This document shows, piece by piece, positions 4,036 through 35,700 of a DNA stretch of 40,640 bases (the first letter of the stretch is position 1; each line of letters begins with the position of its first letter). The stretch is from a virus (Duplodnaviria; Heunggongvirae; Uroviricota; Caudoviricetes): IMG/VR virus record IMGVR_UViG_2541047698_000019; one strand, 5' to 3'. The notes under the pieces were generated by a model. That model was not told the origin of the DNA. It ran no database searches and saw nothing but the letters and a program-made list of their open reading frames with translations. A program made the position numbers and the translations under genes.

Positions 4036-4397
4036 TATGCTCCAGCCTCCGGCGCTTTTGGCATTACTGCCCAGTGAGTGATATTGAAGTTTTCAAGGTC
4101 CCCGACCTGAAATGTCCACTGCCATTCTCCGGTTTCTTTTTGTCCCCAGGTGTACCAGAGAGAACGCCAGCCAATCAGCCAGCCTTCTCCGTTAGCATCA
4201 AATAACAGAACACTTTCATTTGCTGGTGGCAGTTCAGCTGACACTGGTATTATTTTGTTTTCCAGTGCCGCACATTTAGCTTCAAGCGCGTCGAATTTAC
4301 GTACCAGGTACTCAGCATTTGTTTCGTTCACTTTCAGATCTCGCGGTACACATTTCCCGCGAAGAAACCCTTCCATTTCGAAAACATTCATGCGCAT
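4035..4397 (-). CDS. DUF551-like phage protein (paralogue of 3412-4035)
   Basis: 120 aa. C-terminal ...ITHWAVMPKAPE resembles the DUF551 signature. Confidence 0.45.
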   Translation of the reverse strand: MRMNVFEMEGFLRGKCVPRDLKVNETNAEYLVRKFDALEAKCAALENKIIPVSAELPPANESVLLFDANGEGWLIGWRSLWYTWGQKETGEWQWTFQVGDLENFNITHWAVMPKAPEAGA

Positions 4398-4951
4398 TTG
4401 CGTAACTCCGATAACTCGTTAAAACGTTCCATAAACATCCCGTAGGCATGGCTAGGTGCCAGTGGAATCACGTTGAACATCTCTGTTGCCGGGATGCCTT
4501 CCAGTACAGGCCAGAAAGAGCCATCATCAAGCCCGAGATCGCGGCGTTCGGTTGCCAGCATGATAAGATCGGCATATTTCACGGGCGTACTCATAACTGG
4601 GGGTAACCCGTATTTCTCACGGATTACGGCGTCAATTTTTTCTTCCATCCGTTTATAGTCAGGAAGAAGGCGTTTCAGTGGAGCGGGAATATCCTGGCAA
4701 TACGCTTCTGTTGCATCATGCATTAACGCTTCAAAAGCAAATTCCTGCGGCACCAGCTGGCTGCAAAGCACCGCATGTTGGGCGACACTGTAGAAGTGAG
4801 AAAGATGACCGGCAAAGCGGCAGATATTTGAAAGGGAAACCGCGATATCGTTAATCACGATGTCGTCTTTATTTATCTTGTCATAATAAAAATGCTTCCC
4901 GGAAAAAGTTTTAATAAATGACATTTTGTTCTCCGCGTATATGCGCTGCAC
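4388..4951 (-). CDS. HD-domain phosphohydrolase (YfdR-like 5'-deoxynucleotidase)
   Basis: 187 aa with H...HD metal-binding pattern (HLSHFYSVAQHAV ... MHDATEAY). Size and position match the prophage YfdR family. Confidence 0.65.
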   Translation of the reverse strand: MQRIYAENKMSFIKTFSGKHFYYDKINKDDIVINDIAVSLSNICRFAGHLSHFYSVAQHAVLCSQLVPQEFAFEALMHDATEAYCQDIPAPLKRLLPDYKRMEEKIDAVIREKYGLPPVMSTPVKYADLIMLATERRDLGLDDGSFWPVLEGIPATEMFNVIPLAPSHAYGMFMERFNELSELRKCA

Positions 4952-5051: not shown

Positions 5052-5876
5052 TCAGGCGGTGAAAGTACCAATAAAGGTTTCTACTTTGCTGTCTTTGAAT
5101 TTCTCAACAAGCAGATCACGAAATTCGTTAGCCATATCTTCCTGCACCGCTTCCAGCTGAATAATGCGCAGAACCAGTACAGGACGATCGCCAGTGATAA
5201 TGCTGAGGCGTAATTTAAACGGACGTTCTTTCAGACCTTCAAACGGAACGCATTTAAATTCAAATGCCACTGGCATAATGTCTTTGGTCTTCGCTTCGAC
5301 AGATTCCATCAGGGAGCGTTTGCCGCTGAAGTCATTATCTTCAAAATCAGCGGTCTGGTTTGCTTCAATCGTGATTTTACGGACTGCCGCAGCCGCTTTT
5401 GTTGCCTGAATAGCGTCACCATTAGCATCAAAGCCCACAAGGTAGTCGGCCCAGTCTTCAATCCATTCTGCCAGTGACTTCTGGGAGTTACGCTCGCCGT
5501 TAACAGACAACAGGGCAGAGAACGGTGCTGTCTTTTTCAGTTTGAGAGTGGCGGTGTTATCTGCGTGACCTGGTTCATCAATAGTACCCAGGTTAAGTAC
5601 ACTGACGGCACGCATATTATCAGCATCGATAAAGCAGCGGGTGCCTTCATCTGCAAGATCTTTAGAATAACGGGTAAAGTCATCGATGCTGGCAGTGGAA
5701 AGCGCACCACGGAAACGGAAGCGATTTAAATTAAATTTTTCCAGATCATGAATGCGGAAATTCTCAGGCAATGCCACAGCATCGGCACCAATCTTACTGA
5801 TAATTTCATTAACACCCTGAGCAGAAATAAGGGCATGGATTTGATTAATTGCGGTTGCGTCTAAGTTCTGAGACAT
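5052..5876 (-). CDS. YfdQ-like protein (DUF2303)
   Basis: 274 aa, the same length as E. coli CPS-53 YfdQ. Gene order 120/274/187/120 aa parallels yfdP-Q-R-S (from memory). Confidence 0.55.
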
Positions 5877-5941: not shown

Positions 5942-6304
5942 TTAATGACCTGCTGCGCGTAGTTTTCCGTCAGGTTCACCGGCAAGAGTCAGTAATTGTC
6001 CCTGGTCTTCCTGCAGAATAGTCAGGCGACCACCGCGATTGACATACATCGGCGTTTCGGTGGTGTCTTCTTCGGAAATTTTCCCGCGGTTAGTCGGGCG
6101 AACATATGAGAGTTTGTGTTTGATTTTCACACGGTTCTCATCAAATGGTTCGATTTCCAGGTTGAGTGAGACCTTACCTTTGGTTTTCGTGTTCATCACA
6201 CCGGAAGCGACTTCACTGAGAACAGCGCCGATTTTGGTTTCAAATACGCCGCCGTCCAGCTCCCCGATAAATGCCTGCACATCAGTACTGCGTTCGCTAG
6301 CCAT
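5942..6304 (-). CDS. hypothetical phage protein (YfdP-like by position)
   Basis: ORF track 5942-6532, trimmed to the ATG at 6304 (MASERSTDVQ...) which has a GAGGAG RBS 8 nt upstream; 120 aa. Confidence 0.5.
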   Translation of the reverse strand: MASERSTDVQAFIGELDGGVFETKIGAVLSEVASGVMNTKTKGKVSLNLEIEPFDENRVKIKHKLSYVRPTNRGKISEEDTTETPMYVNRGGRLTILQEDQGQLLTLAGEPDGKLRAAGH

Positions 6305-6352
6305 TTTGCTGCTCCTCATCATATCGACCCTGCAAGGTCGGTTAGTTTCTCC

Positions 6353-6441
6353 ACAAAACAGAGAAGAACACCTGCGGTGGCAGCCGCCCGGATGGATTGG
6401 GTTATGAGCCCGTCGTCCGGTGATGCTCTTCTCTGTTTTGT
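6353..6441. repeat. long inverted repeat: 15-bp perfect arms ACAAAACAGAGAAGA / TCTTCTCTGTTTTGT separated by about 59 nt
   Basis: Read directly. Lies in the intergenic region between the minus-strand early genes and the plus-strand moron. Confidence 0.5.
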
Positions 6442-6583
6442 AAAAAGAGCGGTACCAGCCGGAAGCAAGGGTACAAACTGGTACCGCCAGGACTACACAC
6501 AGCAATGAAACTATTGCCTGTCTTTTCACCACTTCAGGCTCGGTGGTATGCTGGAGTTCTCACACAGCCAGCAAGGAAACCTA

Positions 6584-6925
6584 ATGAACCAGTTTTATGT
6601 TCATGTTCGTCTGTTTGAAGCAACAGCCGAACAGACCAAAAAATTTGAAGAATTAATGCTTAACTTTCTGTACCAGAAAACAATCAAAGAGTCTGACGAT
6701 AGCTGCTGCAGACTGATTCCAGAGGGATATATCCTCAAAAGCACAATGAACTGCCAACAAATCCTTGATCAAACTTTTTCCATTGCTAACAGTGCTGGTG
6801 TTGACGCAAATATATTTGTCTGCAAATTTGAACAAAGCGTATGCTTACTTCCGTCTGCTTCCTTAGTTGGCAACGATTTTGTTCATCACGATCTTACGCC
6901 TAAGCCCATCAAGCTCGATTCTTAA
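6584..6925 (+). CDS. hypothetical AT-rich moron protein, antisense to the early-left operon
   Basis: ORF track 6548-6925; preferred start is the ATG 36 nt in (MNQFYVH...) with AAGGAA RBS. Candidate promoter TTCACC-N16-TATGCT upstream. About 40 percent GC. The 3' end overlaps 6863-7171 (-) by 63 bp. Confidence 0.35.
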   Translation: MNQFYVHVRLFEATAEQTKKFEELMLNFLYQKTIKESDDSCCRLIPEGYILKSTMNCQQILDQTFSIANSAGVDANIFVCKFEQSVCLLPSASLVGNDFVHHDLTPKPIKLDS

Positions 6926-7171
6926 TGCCTTAACCATTGTGTCGTGATAAACACGGCTCACCCTCTCTCCATTGCATGGCAGTGGGGTGATCGTGTTAGC
7001 CATGAAATTCATGAACTTGGTTCGATCAGGGTCTTGCGCCTCGCAAGTCTTTAATGCCTGTTTTGCTAACAAAATACGGGCCTCAGTGCCTGCATTTGGC
7101 TCTATCTGCTGCAAACGTTTAGCGTCTTCCAGCAACAATGCGATCACATGCTTCAAATCCTGCTCATTCAT
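6863..7171 (-). CDS. hypothetical protein, first gene of the leftward early operon
   Basis: 102 aa with GGAGAG RBS upstream of the start. Located immediately left of the OL-like operator cluster. Confidence 0.5.
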   Translation of the reverse strand: MNEQDLKHVIALLLEDAKRLQQIEPNAGTEARILLAKQALKTCEAQDPDRTKFMNFMANTITPLPCNGERVSRVYHDTMVKALRIELDGLRRKIVMNKIVAN

Positions 7172-7260
7172 CTATTCTCTCCACTGAAATCATCCGCTAA
7201 CGAATCATCCTGGACTTCATATGCCCCAGGCGGCTACTTCGTGGGCGTCCTGCCTGTTCG

Positions 7261-7320
7261 TTACTGCAACATCTTTAAGTTGTAATCTAGTTGTTGTTTT
7301 GGTTGTTGTCAACAACTTTA
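7261..7320. promoter_or_regulatory. OL/PL-like operator-promoter region with repeated GTTGTTG / CAACAACTTTA motifs
   Basis: 15-bp perfect palindrome GTTGTTGTCAACAAC (7302-7316) plus additional AGTTGT/GTTGTTG repeats. The same motif family recurs at 8221-8310. Confidence 0.5.
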
Positions 7321-7506
7321 TGTGGTTTTGACGGATGTGAAATGAGGGCAAGGGTTATCAAAAAAGGAGGTTGTATGGACGATGCGCTTTTAATTACACA
7401 AGGGACACTTTCCTTCCGTGATTGGAAACTCTCAAATCACGGGAGGAAGATTGAAAAGGCGGGTAATAATGGTAACTAAATTTCTGAAGGAAGGTTTTTT
7501 GATGCA

Positions 7507-8193
7507 TTACCAAGTGCGCGATGACCAGAATACTCTACCTATAACGTGAATTCTGGAACGCCTATCTTCGAAGGTGAGTATTTCATCTGGATACTCATCT
7601 TTATTGAAACTTCTTAGAATCAGACCACCGTCAGGTAAATTGATCAATATTTTAACTCTAAGTAATACGCCATCACGTATGGCATAAAGATCCCCATCAC
7701 GAATAGGAACCGTTTGGGAAACATCAACAGCAACAAAATCTCCATTGTTAAGTACAGGTAGTAAACTATTGCCCCAAATTTTTACGATCTTTGCATTGGA
7801 GACACATACACCAGCTTTTCTTAAATCAATCCTTCTTAGCGGGAACCAGTCTACAGTTGATTCAACTATTTCAGCCAAACATCCATTACCCGCTGATAAC
7901 TCGACATCTAGGACTGGAATGTTTGCAAAAATGTCAGGATCTAATGCTGTACTTTCAGCCTCCTTTACAACAAGGTCTGGGAAAGACGCGTTATCCTCAA
8001 TGCCCAATTGCAACCACTTTTGAGAAACCCCTAACACTTTAGCAATCTCTTTAATTTTCCGAGGCTGTTGAGTTTCTCCATTCTCGATTTTCGCTACGGA
8101 TTGTTGTGAAAGCCCAATTTTTTCAGCTAGTTGCGCCTGACTCATTCCTGCTTTTTCTCTTTCGCTTTTTAGTCTTTCTGCCAATGTTTTCAC
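7507..8193 (-). CDS. CI-like phage repressor (XRE-family HTH plus S24 LexA-like peptidase domain)
   Basis: 228 aa. N-terminal HTH (MSQAQLAEKIGLSQQSVAKIENG). C-terminal autocleavage-domain features (AG cleavage-site motif, S...K spacing). Non-ATG (GTG) start with GAGGGGGA RBS. Confidence 0.85.
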   Translation of the reverse strand: MKTLAERLKSEREKAGMSQAQLAEKIGLSQQSVAKIENGETQQPRKIKEIAKVLGVSQKWLQLGIEDNASFPDLVVKEAESTALDPDIFANIPVLDVELSAGNGCLAEIVESTVDWFPLRRIDLRKAGVCVSNAKIVKIWGNSLLPVLNNGDFVAVDVSQTVPIRDGDLYAIRDGVLLRVKILINLPDGGLILRSFNKDEYPDEILTFEDRRSRIHVIGRVFWSSRTW

Positions 8194-34300: not shown

Positions 34301-35305
34301 ATGCATCGTATAGACACGAAAACCGCGCAGAAGGATAAGTTCGGCGCGGGTAAGAACGGTTTTACCCGTGGTAACCCCCAGACCGGCACGCCTGCTACCG
34401 ATCTGGATGATGACTACTTTGACATGTTGCAGGAAGAGCTTTGTGGCGTGGTGGAGGCATCCGGTGCCAGCCTGGAGAAGGGGCGAAACGACCAGTTGCT
34501 TACCGCGCTTCGTGCGCTGCTGTTAAGCCGCAAGAATCCGTTTGGTGATATCAAATCGGATGGCACGGTGAAAACGGCTCTCGAAAACCTTGGTTTGGGA
34601 GATGGAACAGGAAGACTCATTGCAGTGTACCGGATTGACACATCCCGGCAAATTACACTGCCGAAAGATGCCAGGTTTGTTGTGGCAGATATGATTGGTG
34701 GCGGAGGCGGCGGTGGCAGTAACTCCACGACCGTACAACCCGGATATGCGTCAGCAGGGCAGGGCGGGAATTCAGGTAGCCGTGTGGTAGCAAAATTCAC
34801 AGTTGATGCCAGTCAGAAAATTAATATTACTATTGGCGCAGGTGGTGCGGGGGGCGTGACAACTCCCGCAACCGGAGCTAATGGAAGTGACGGTGGGGCT
34901 ACGATTATCGACGGTATTACAGCTACTGGTGGGCGAGGTGGAGCTAAGGGGGCAGCATTTAATGTTCTGCCAACCGGCGGGCCTACAGCGATTCAGAATG
35001 CTAATAACACCATTCCTGGAGGAGCAGAATTGATAGCACAGCATCTCGGGTATGGTGGAAGCTCTGGATTTCTGTTCTCGGATAAAAATGCGATTGGCGG
35101 GAAAGGGGCTGACTCTGAATTCGGAGTGGGCGGTGTGGCAGTCGGAATTAGCTCAGGAGTCAATGCATCGACGGGAAAAAATGCCACAGGTAATGGCTCT
35201 GGCGGAAGCGGCGCGGTCTCTATTTATGGATCAGGGTCTACCGGGGTGTCTATGTCGGGTGGAGCAGGGGCTGACGGTCTGGCGATTTTGTGGGTATACG
35301 GCTAA
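34301..35305 (+). CDS. tail fibre protein with glycine-rich C-terminal region
   Basis: 334 aa. Conserved N-terminal attachment region then Gly/Ser/Ala-rich repeats. Confidence 0.7.
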
Positions 35306-35700
35306 TGAACAGATACGCATTAATTAAAAACAATATTGTTGTTAATATCGTTGTTTGGGATGGCGCAGGAGATATGTTTGCCGATTTTAAGGCAGTTAAT
35401 ATCTCTGGTGTTGCAGTTGATATTGGATGGATCTATGACGGAAATAATTTCACAGCCCCCCCCGAACCTGAGAAAACTAAAGAACAGTTAATCCAGGAAG
35501 CAGAACTCGAAAAAGAAGGGCGCATACGTGCTGCAAATGATTTTATTAACAGCAAGCAGTGGCCCGGTAAAGCGGCTATTGGTCGTCTGAAAGGTGACGA
35601 ACTGGAGCAATATAATTTGTGGCTGGATTATCTGGACGCACTGGATGCTGTAGATACTTCAACTGCACCAGAAATAGACTGGCCTCAGCAATCAGAATAA
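35305..35700 (+). CDS. tail fibre assembly protein
   Basis: ORF 35290-35700 trimmed to the ATG of [10 protein letters not shown]. Confidence 0.6.
   Translation: MNRYALIKNNIVVNIVVWDGAGDMFADFKAVNISGVAVDIGWIYDGNNFTAPPEPEKTKEQLIQEAELEKEGRIRAANDFINSKQWPGKAAIGRLKGDELEQYNLWLDYLDALDAVDTSTAPEIDWPQQSE

Follow-up and report, generated by a model that had tools for sequence, protein, structure and literature searches.

Why does a short gene stand on the plus strand of a prophage region in which the early genes all run the other way, and what might it do there? The question is raised by positions 6,305 to 6,925 of a Caudoviricetes sequence (IMG/VR virus record IMGVR_UViG_2541047698_000019), whose full 40,640 nucleotides (nt) we analysed and refer to as the window. 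A first-pass annotation, made from the sequence alone, had described here a 113-amino-acid (aa) open reading frame (ORF) with its own promoter and ribosome-binding site (RBS), overlapping a convergent early gene and lying next to a long inverted repeat, and had taken it for an inserted moron expressed independently of the lytic programme. We found the ORF, RBS, promoter hexamers, overlap and inverted repeat exactly where that annotation had placed them, and the leftward early genes are indeed all on the minus strand, which carries both the repressor gene and the ORFs between about 2522 and 7171. Comparison with related loci supported an inserted moron with its own promoter, although not a novel one: by sequence, the gene is the already annotated ymfI (b1143) of the cryptic prophage e14 of Escherichia coli K-12. 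We are confident that ymfI is genuinely a gene, carried as a moron in a slot whose contents are swapped; the fuller reading, that it is an accessory gene in a self-promoted cargo slot opposite PL of an SfV/e14-like lambdoid prophage, with a GhoS-like product confined to lysogeny, is the one we favour on balance, and an RNA-directed activity of that product is a more tentative part of it.

The plus-strand ORF is ymfI and is under purifying selection

6584-6925, plus strand: ymfI coding sequence, 113 aa; residues 1-83 are a predicted ferredoxin-like (GhoS/Cas2-like) core, and residues 84-113 a tail predicted to be disordered

The ORF product matches the equivalog model NF051477 of NCBIfam ('YmfI family phage protein') over residues 1-90 with 159.9 bits (E 1.7e-47), against a curated cut-off of 140 bits for the whole-protein hidden Markov model score. 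It also matches phrog_8894, a PHROG of unknown function; neither YmfI nor YmfJ, the product of the convergent early gene, has a Pfam match. A longer form in the ORF list, starting at 6548 (125 aa), was rejected; its ATG falls within the -10 hexamer of the promoter described below.

Selection was measured by pairwise Nei-Gojobori comparison of the 93 ymfI codons that are free of minus-strand gene overlap, with six further loci added. The ratio of nonsynonymous to synonymous substitution (dN/dS) was 0.09-0.23 at dS 0.6-1.2; variable sites at codon positions 1, 2 and 3 numbered 28, 20 and 64, and the only length variation was one in-frame single-codon indel in a variable loop. This purifying selection on the plus frame outside the overlap rejects the possibility, raised by the first-pass annotation against its own proposal, that the codons are conserved only through minus-strand genes. 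Within the 20-codon overlap dS fell below that of the ymfI core, as dual coding constraint would predict. The lower G+C content that had been remarked on was also evident (0.392 in ymfI, compared with 0.499 in the window and 0.52 in the upstream intergenic sequence), although the repressor gene is similarly AT-rich (0.402).

Eighteen complete E. coli genomes carry prophages 99.5-99.7% identical to the window over the 1-kb ymfI region, and e14 of K-12 and its derivatives is about 95% identical to it in nucleotide sequence over ymfI. The close YmfI family is narrow, being found at 74% identity or more in Escherichia, Klebsiella, Raoultella, Enterobacter and Salmonella. The annotated order in K-12 is ymfH (minus), ymfI (plus), ymfJ (minus) and ymfK/cohE (minus), with the same 63-bp ymfI/ymfJ overlap as in the window; the context, convergent with ymfJ and beside a CI-type repressor, is likewise that of e14, and recurs in Salmonella, Klebsiella and Enterobacter loci. 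E. coli papers that name ymfI place it in deletion lists, SOS tables or the excludome, and the literature searched contained neither a functional study of YmfI nor an exclusion phenotype.

A slot supplies a putative promoter and a ribosome-binding site to exchangeable cargo

6525-6552, plus strand: putative ymfI promoter, with the -35 hexamer TTCACC (6525-6530), a 16-nt spacer and the extended -10 element TGgTATGCT (6544-6552)
6553-6583, plus strand: ymfI 5' untranslated region (UTR), with the Shine-Dalgarno (SD) sequence AAGGAA at 6573-6578, 5 nt before the ATG
7033-7057, plus strand: possible ymfI terminator inside ymfJ, CTTGCG-CCT-CGCAAG followed by TCTTTAATGC

The extended -10 element (TGGTATGCT, 6544-6552) ends in the hexamer TATGCT at 6547-6552, and the spacer carries a CCAC...GTGG dyad. 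The promoter block is kept ahead of YmfI homologues both near and distant. The TG of the extended -10 is invariant even ahead of YmfI relatives at 25-50% identity; the -35 varies (TTCACC, TTAGCC, TCGCCA).

Presence and absence among relatives, a comparison that the first-pass annotation had proposed, were informative: with a 1-kb query, SfV, SfIV, SfII, vB_EcoM-689R6, PhiR29 and others match both flanks and not the middle. A three-way alignment shows that the window, e14 and SfV have almost the same left flank, in which the inverted repeat and the putative promoter lie; identity between SfV and the window ends exactly after the -10 hexamer, where a different plus-strand ORF takes over. Alternative plus-strand cargo was seen in SfV, 689R6, PhiR29 and 118970_sal3; in relatives other than SfV, plus-strand ORFs of 144, 242 or 138 aa stand at this place.

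The promoter block has a 24-nt core, CCACTTCAGGCTCGGTGGTAT[GC]CT, and an IMG/VR scan with this core matched at least 120 contigs. Among the listed loci, an SD-led ORF begins 29-33 nt past the -10 in 115 of the 119 that were usable, and the ORFs of these 115 fall into at least 12 unrelated families. The commonest among the listed loci are an 81-aa protein of the SfV type (58), a 76-aa zinc-ribbon-like protein (16) and YmfI (16); the cargo also includes, at L045 and a further IMG/VR locus, a BssS-family protein (PF13991, E 2e-16) and, at L028 and a further locus, another GhoS-like protein of divergent sequence, which has 94 aa and scores 18.7 bits against PF11080. The entire 5' UTR, GGAGTTCTCACACAGCCAGCAAGGAAA, is common to seven cargo families, whose sequences part at the start codon; the promoter, UTR and SD sequence therefore belong to the slot, and what is exchanged is the coding sequence.

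The SfV cargo is an unannotated 81-aa ORF with a good SD sequence of its own (SfV U82619, our L001, 2993-3238, plus strand), which converges on orf33 with an overlap of 83 bp and has no Pfam or PADLOC match. The 'putative terminator' of SfV (L001 2973-3005) overlies the RBS of this ORF, and is not the terminator described below for the window. STMMW_20121 of ST64B, a lysogen-expressed antisense gene (PMC7067206), was considered as a possible occupant of the slot; ST64B shows no clear cargo ORF there.

At the downstream end, the hairpin at 7033-7057 came from a terminator scan and is weak evidence for a ymfI terminator; it is kept in e14 and, with a loop change, in the Salmonella locus, and is absent where the convergent partner has another N-terminal domain. 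At the upstream end, the window lacks, at junction 6505/6506, a non-coding stretch of about 150 bp that stands between the minus-strand terminator and the ymfI promoter in e14 (L002, about 4190-4400), SfV (L001, about 2757-2920), ST64B (L019, 2690-2815) and Klebsiella loci. Within this stretch, which had no Rfam match in the related loci scanned, two blocks are well conserved: GTGCCGGGTGCCTCCCGGTG, which forms a hairpin, and CCGCGTGCGCTnAGCCGCATTCACC, which is present in 67 of 109 IMG/VR loci that carry the promoter.

The PL transcript would run antisense through the whole ymfI unit

7507-8193, minus strand: CI-like repressor gene (HTH_3 and Peptidase_S24 domain matches)
7284-7312, minus strand: PL-like promoter, TTGACA-17-TAGATT, 10 of 12 in a consensus scan; presumptive PL
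6863-7171, minus strand: ymfJ coding sequence, 102 aa, first gene of the PL transcript; phrog_12693
6863-6925, both strands: convergent overlap of the ymfI and ymfJ coding sequences, 63 bp
6442-6487, minus strand: intrinsic terminator of the PL/ymfJ transcript, with stem 6478-6487/6449-6458, a 19-nt loop and UCUUUUU at 6448-6442
6353-6441, minus strand: long hairpin with a 19-25 bp outer stem and branched interior, directly past the terminator U-run, in the yfdP 5' leader
5942-6304, minus strand: yfdP, which follows the terminator and hairpin in the leftward operon (PF27127 YfdP match in L003)
5052-5876, minus strand: YfdQ/DUF2303 gene (domain match)
4388-4951, minus strand: HD-domain protein gene (domain match)

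The presumptive PL would transcribe ymfJ and the rest of the leftward operon, and its assignment is supported by the position of this promoter between the CI-like repressor gene and ymfJ. The 3' overlap of ymfI with the convergent early gene at 6863-7171, from which antisense interference had been proposed, is present at the 63 bp reported, as it is in e14, and overlaps of 42-72 bp with the partner gene are kept in Salmonella, Klebsiella and Enterobacter loci. That figure, however, understates the possible interference: a PL transcript stopping at 6442-6487 would span the whole of ymfI, so that the 3' part of the ymfJ mRNA would be antisense to the entire gene, RBS and promoter included. The terminator was missed by the scan because its loop is longer than the scan's 8-nt limit; its stem differs by lineage (GGCGGUACCAG, GUCGGCGUC, UGCCCAUC), and the hairpin and U-run are kept in all ten loci. 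YmfI relatives at 25-50% identity are likewise encoded by plus-strand genes, flanked by the PL gene nearest the repressor on one side and the remaining operon on the other, and overlap their partners by 4-55 bp, in prophages that differ in repressor, Cro type and left-hand genes (Kil, KilR, YdfE).

The inverted repeat upstream of ymfI has perfect 15-nt arms (6353-6367 and 6427-6441), as reported, and can be extended to 25-nt arms at 84% complementarity; no second repeat of this kind occurs in the 40.6-kb window, and 100 shuffles produced none. The minus strand of 6305-6583 folds well (z -4.46), the repeat forming a long hairpin at 6441-6353: a hairpin at 6487-6449 with UCUUUUU is followed by the long hairpin, and this by a small hairpin with the yfdP SD sequence. 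Compensatory double changes were found in 3 of the 19 outer-stem pairs in a ten-sequence alignment. The repeat, which the first-pass annotation had noted just upstream of the ORF, is not part of the moron: the terminator and long hairpin also occur in phages without ymfI or evident cargo (ST64B, phiNP, LLS, Eeyore, mEp460, cdtI and Stx2c phages), so the repeat belongs to a terminator/yfdP-leader module of the minus-strand operon. The long hairpin could be an RNase III site, an element controlling yfdP translation or part of an antitermination system. The window has no Rfam match at gathering thresholds, and six related loci have only IsrK and C4 RNAs, located elsewhere; no known RNA family accordingly accounts for the hairpin, terminator or promoter region.

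The IsrK and C4 antisense RNA genes lie next to each other in the rightward operon of relatives (L001 5542-5730, L003 8744-8932 and L016 3460-3645). The yfdP frame stays open upstream (a 196-aa ORF, 5942-6532, minus strand) through the hairpin and terminator region, and the corresponding stretch of K-12 is annotated as ymfH (L002 4002-4313). Since the conserved terminator and hairpin occupy that stretch, ymfH probably does not encode a genuine protein.

On the repressor side of ymfJ, the PL leader (7199-7262) hardly differs between the window, e14 and SfV despite their different immunity regions and, in SfV, a different first gene; ST64B has a compensatory change in it (CCTGG...CCAGG for CCGGT...ACCGG). 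Its fold (7172-7280, minus strand) is no better than that of shuffled sequences (z -0.04), which does not support a nut- or put-like structured site. A 17-nt inverted repeat of 88% complementarity with a 5-nt loop (7410-7448) lies just past the stop codon of the repressor gene (minus strand) and may be its terminator. In a Klebsiella prophage (L004 2522-2632, minus strand), a 36-aa, strongly hydrophobic ORF, MSRNGIRSLIIVLAICLVAWSATIIKILHVTGVFNG, stands between the slot and a homologue of lambda Kil, and could encode a small membrane peptide of the early-left operon.

Transcription of the e14 copy

All expression data concern the e14 copy of K-12, which is about 95% identical to that of the window. 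The pair ymfI-ymfJ belongs to the MG1655 core convergent excludome defined with ExcludonFinder (PMC12288877): of 58 samples with strand-specific RNA-seq, at least 50% show the opposite-strand transcription units overlapping, so that the e14 copy is transcribed in overlap with ymfJ in ordinary cultures. In the late SOS response of K-12, a multi-omics study found ymfJ raised by a log2 of 4.8 and ymfI by about 2, and detected YmfJ protein after SOS induction (PMC11002266). The YmfT (e14 lytic) iModulon in a Reg-Seq preprint lists ymfH and ymfJ and omits the intervening ymfI (PMC12132413). These data agree with transcription of ymfI in the prophage state under separate control. Expression independent of the lytic programme, as first proposed, is thus supported in part, by the overlapping transcription and by the place of ymfI outside the YmfT iModulon, in each case for the e14 copy only.

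The modelled fold of YmfI resembles GhoS

An AlphaFold2 model from 17 family members comprises a core at residues 1-83 (predicted local distance difference test, pLDDT, 84-93 by block except in one loop) with secondary structure in the order b-a-b-a-b; residues from 84 on are predicted to be disordered. The best solved structural match to this model by two methods is GhoS (PDB 2LLZ), and YmfI as modelled is GhoS/Cas2-like in fold. A Foldseek search of viral structures matched uncharacterised proteins only, and a sequence-profile search of the PDB with YmfI returned nothing even at E<=10.

Searched against 1.8 billion representative proteins, the YmfI family profile found relatives of about 92 aa that lack the tail. 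It recovered P0037 (E 7e-6) and P0041 (E 3e-4), two distant relatives that pass the 21-bit gathering threshold of the Pfam GhoS model PF11080, with 24.2 and 28.8 bits respectively; four further relatives score 12.7-18.7 bits, under the threshold. We judge a remote homology between YmfI and the GhoS superfamily to be somewhat more probable than not. YmfI is not a demonstrated member of the GhoS family, nor a demonstrated RNase.

The DNA strand complementary to the codons for the YmfI tail encodes the conserved C-terminal helix of YmfJ, and the shorter relatives have no such tail. The tail has the appearance of a reading frame lengthened across the antisense strand of the partner gene, and the coding constraint from YmfJ can account for its high conservation.

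A lysogeny-only function and its competitors

These features suggest how the locus might work. In the lysogen, the extended -10 promoter at 6525-6552 would make a short ymfI mRNA running into the 3' part of ymfJ, from transcription that would be constitutive or host-controlled. On inactivation of the repressor, PL (7312-7284) would fire and the ymfJ transcript would run to 6442-6487, antisense through the entire ymfI unit; the two units would be mutually exclusive, through polymerase collision or duplex RNA, and ymfI would be a lysogeny-only function. YmfI might then bind or cleave a specific RNA in the lysogen, candidate targets being transcripts that leak from the PL operon of the resident prophage or transcripts of a related phage entering the cell, and might act as a back-up to repressor immunity or in exclusion. 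In the PL operon of many relatives, kil or kilR comes right after the slot. An RNA-directed function, suggested by the modelled fold, we put forward tentatively. Its most specific form is more doubtful: the site would be an undescribed plug-in slot of lambdoid prophages in Enterobacteriaceae, set opposite the PL operon shortly ahead of its first terminator and silenced by PL read-through, and YmfI and a second lineage would be toxin-less GhoS/Cas2-like guards that destroy leaky or incoming early-left RNAs, such as kil.

Several observations weigh against the account that we favour. The ymfI promoter matches the consensus at only 8 of 12 positions and hence was not listed by a consensus scan, and the extended -10 motif TGNTATNCT is not enriched in the window (3 found, 3.97 expected); the case for this promoter is made by conservation and fixed spacing, not by consensus match. 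The gene is rare in E. coli, its region being present in 303 of 5426 genomes, 285 of these 303 being of the e14 type, and a tblastn search with YmfI of 50,697 phage records found it in no isolated phage. The Foldseek match to GhoS has an E value of only 1e-2, the ferredoxin-like fold is very common, and domains of the ACT, RAM and HMA types score nearly equal to GhoS. YmfI itself has no match to PF11080 even at E<=10; hhalign comparisons of the family with E. coli GhoS are weak (P 0.031 and 0.0077), although the two alignments share one register. Arg28, reported as the key catalytic residue of GhoS (PMC4010927), is paired in these weak alignments, where the column is uncertain, with Glu22 of YmfI and with a conserved His of the wider family. 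The ORF list shows no co-directional ghoT-like toxin gene, only the convergent ymfJ downstream of ymfI; the hydrophobic 36-aa ORF noted above lies on the other strand and was seen in a single Klebsiella locus. Finally, no cargo family of the slot convincingly matches a known defence system, and PADLOC returned nothing for YmfI, YmfJ, YfdP or the alternative cargo apart from one weak candidate, PDC-M14A (E 9e-4), in the cargo.

The competitor that survives best makes YmfI a superinfection-exclusion or abortive-infection protein whose mechanism is unrelated to RNA, in effect a functional analogue of SieB with a ferredoxin-like fold. Slot and orientation match those of lambda sieB, ymfI is expressed in the K-12 prophage state, and many alternative small cargo genes share the slot, as at defence and exclusion hot spots; yet YmfI resembles neither SieB nor any PADLOC model, is small, soluble and without a membrane segment, unlike SieB, and has no sister cargo family that is a known defence gene; one of these families is BssS-like. 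We consider this explanation unlikely, if the best of the alternatives.

YmfI and YmfJ might instead form an obligate two-protein module, of a toxin-antitoxin-like kind for example, with expression coupled by the overlap. The two co-occur in E. coli, Salmonella, Klebsiella and Enterobacter with the overlaps of 42-72 bp given above, and the C-terminal module of YmfJ (about 40 aa, whose last 20 codons and stop lie opposite the ymfI tail) is highly conserved, as is that tail. Against this, proteins of the YmfJ type are mosaics in which three unrelated N-terminal domains are joined to the one C-terminal module (partners in L004, L006, L008, L009 and L013), and distant YmfI relatives have unrelated partners or partners without the module: an SfV-orf33-type protein in L016 and a 66-aa protein in L012. 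Such varying partners argue against an obligate pair, and the tail of YmfI is predicted to be disordered and is absent from the relatives of about 92 aa. We regard an obligate pair as very unlikely. The C-terminal module has the motif ..PC.G.GVSRVYHDTMVKALRIEL..LR..I..NEIV.N, and a single-sequence structure model of YmfJ is all helical and of low confidence (pLDDT 53).

The plus-strand RNA could itself be the functional product, a cis-antisense regulator of ymfJ and PL in which the ORF is incidental; convergent overlapping transcription is documented for e14, and the antisense RNAs OOP and sas control neighbouring phage genes. Such a role leaves unexplained the strong purifying selection on the plus frame outside the overlap, the constant spacing from the promoter to the SD sequence and start codon in 12 cargo families, and protein homologues recognisable down to 25% identity in the same slot. 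This explanation is highly improbable, although an antisense effect may exist in addition to the YmfI protein. The comparative data weaken both it and the obligate pair. That the ORF is open by chance, opposite an early operon, as its shortness and lack of a Pfam domain or characterised function might suggest, is refuted on comparative grounds by its dN/dS of 0.09-0.23 and third-position bias, its curated NCBIfam equivalog, its conserved promoter and SD sequence, and the 93 of 113 codons with no minus-strand gene opposite.

Earlier work had already given ymfI, the ymfI/ymfJ overlap and the general notion of an antisense moron at the sieB position; the remote GhoS-like assignment and the promoter-UTR-SD slot with at least 12 cargo families appear to be absent from the literature that we searched. 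As ymfI is an uncharacterised y-gene of K-12, leads on its function are directly testable in the best-studied bacterium. One such lead is the GhoS/Cas2-like fold and family assignment, which points to RNA as the target; the other is the slot, which supplies a promoter to at least 12 alternative small genes at a site where PL transcription would silence the cargo on induction. If the cargo acts on phage or host RNA in lysogens, these genes would constitute a family of lysogeny-only functions at a position so far known only for sieB; if it does not, ymfI stays an ordinary moron of unknown function.

Comparison with known systems

The closest system is e14 itself, which shares with the window the YmfI family, the neighbouring ymfJ and CI-like repressor genes, the 63-bp convergent overlap and the promoter block. 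The window prophage differs in being a full-size SfV-like element with yfdP, yfdQ and yfdR leftward and a different immunity region, whereas e14 has xisE/intE immediately leftward of the ymfI region.

Like YmfI, GhoS (YjdK), the endoribonuclease antitoxin of a type V system, is a small stand-alone ferredoxin-like protein (about 95 aa), of which Cas2 is a structural relative. GhoS, however, is encoded in a chromosomal two-gene operon with the membrane toxin gene ghoT downstream, whereas YmfI is prophage cargo convergent with an early gene and has an extra tail of 20-30 residues.

The arrangement of ymfI is most like that of sieB. In the annotation of lambda, sieB (34482-35036, plus strand) abuts and converges on N (35037-35438, minus strand), the first PL gene; both sieB and ymfI are thus antisense to PL, immediately beyond the first PL gene, and sieB is expressed from the prophage, as is ymfI in e14 of K-12. 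SieB is the larger protein and is membrane-associated. In P22, the antisense RNA sas is reportedly processed from the PL transcript (Ranade and Poteete, 1993). The two proteins have no relation in sequence or fold, and YmfI had no Pfam, PHROG-function or PADLOC match that would link it to SieB. The switching of sieB translation products by sas in P22 (PMC12197685, PMC7067206) and the internal Esc-like start are features of sieB that ymfI is not known to share.

Among convergent excludons, the ymfI-ymfJ pair of e14 is listed in the MG1655 core excludome; for the window, overlapping units are predicted from the positions of PL, the ymfI promoter and the ymfJ-unit terminator, which PL transcription would reach only after crossing all of ymfI. 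Excludons are defined by mutually exclusive expression, whereas the report for ymfI-ymfJ is one of overlapping transcription units (PMC12288877). With lambdoid morons, ymfI has in common a putative promoter of its own, a deviating G+C content (0.39 compared with 0.50), presence or absence among close relatives and, for the e14 copy, expression in the prophage state; it departs from the usual moron in that the promoter, UTR and SD sequence belong to the slot, its own terminator is doubtful, and the point of exchange is the start codon.

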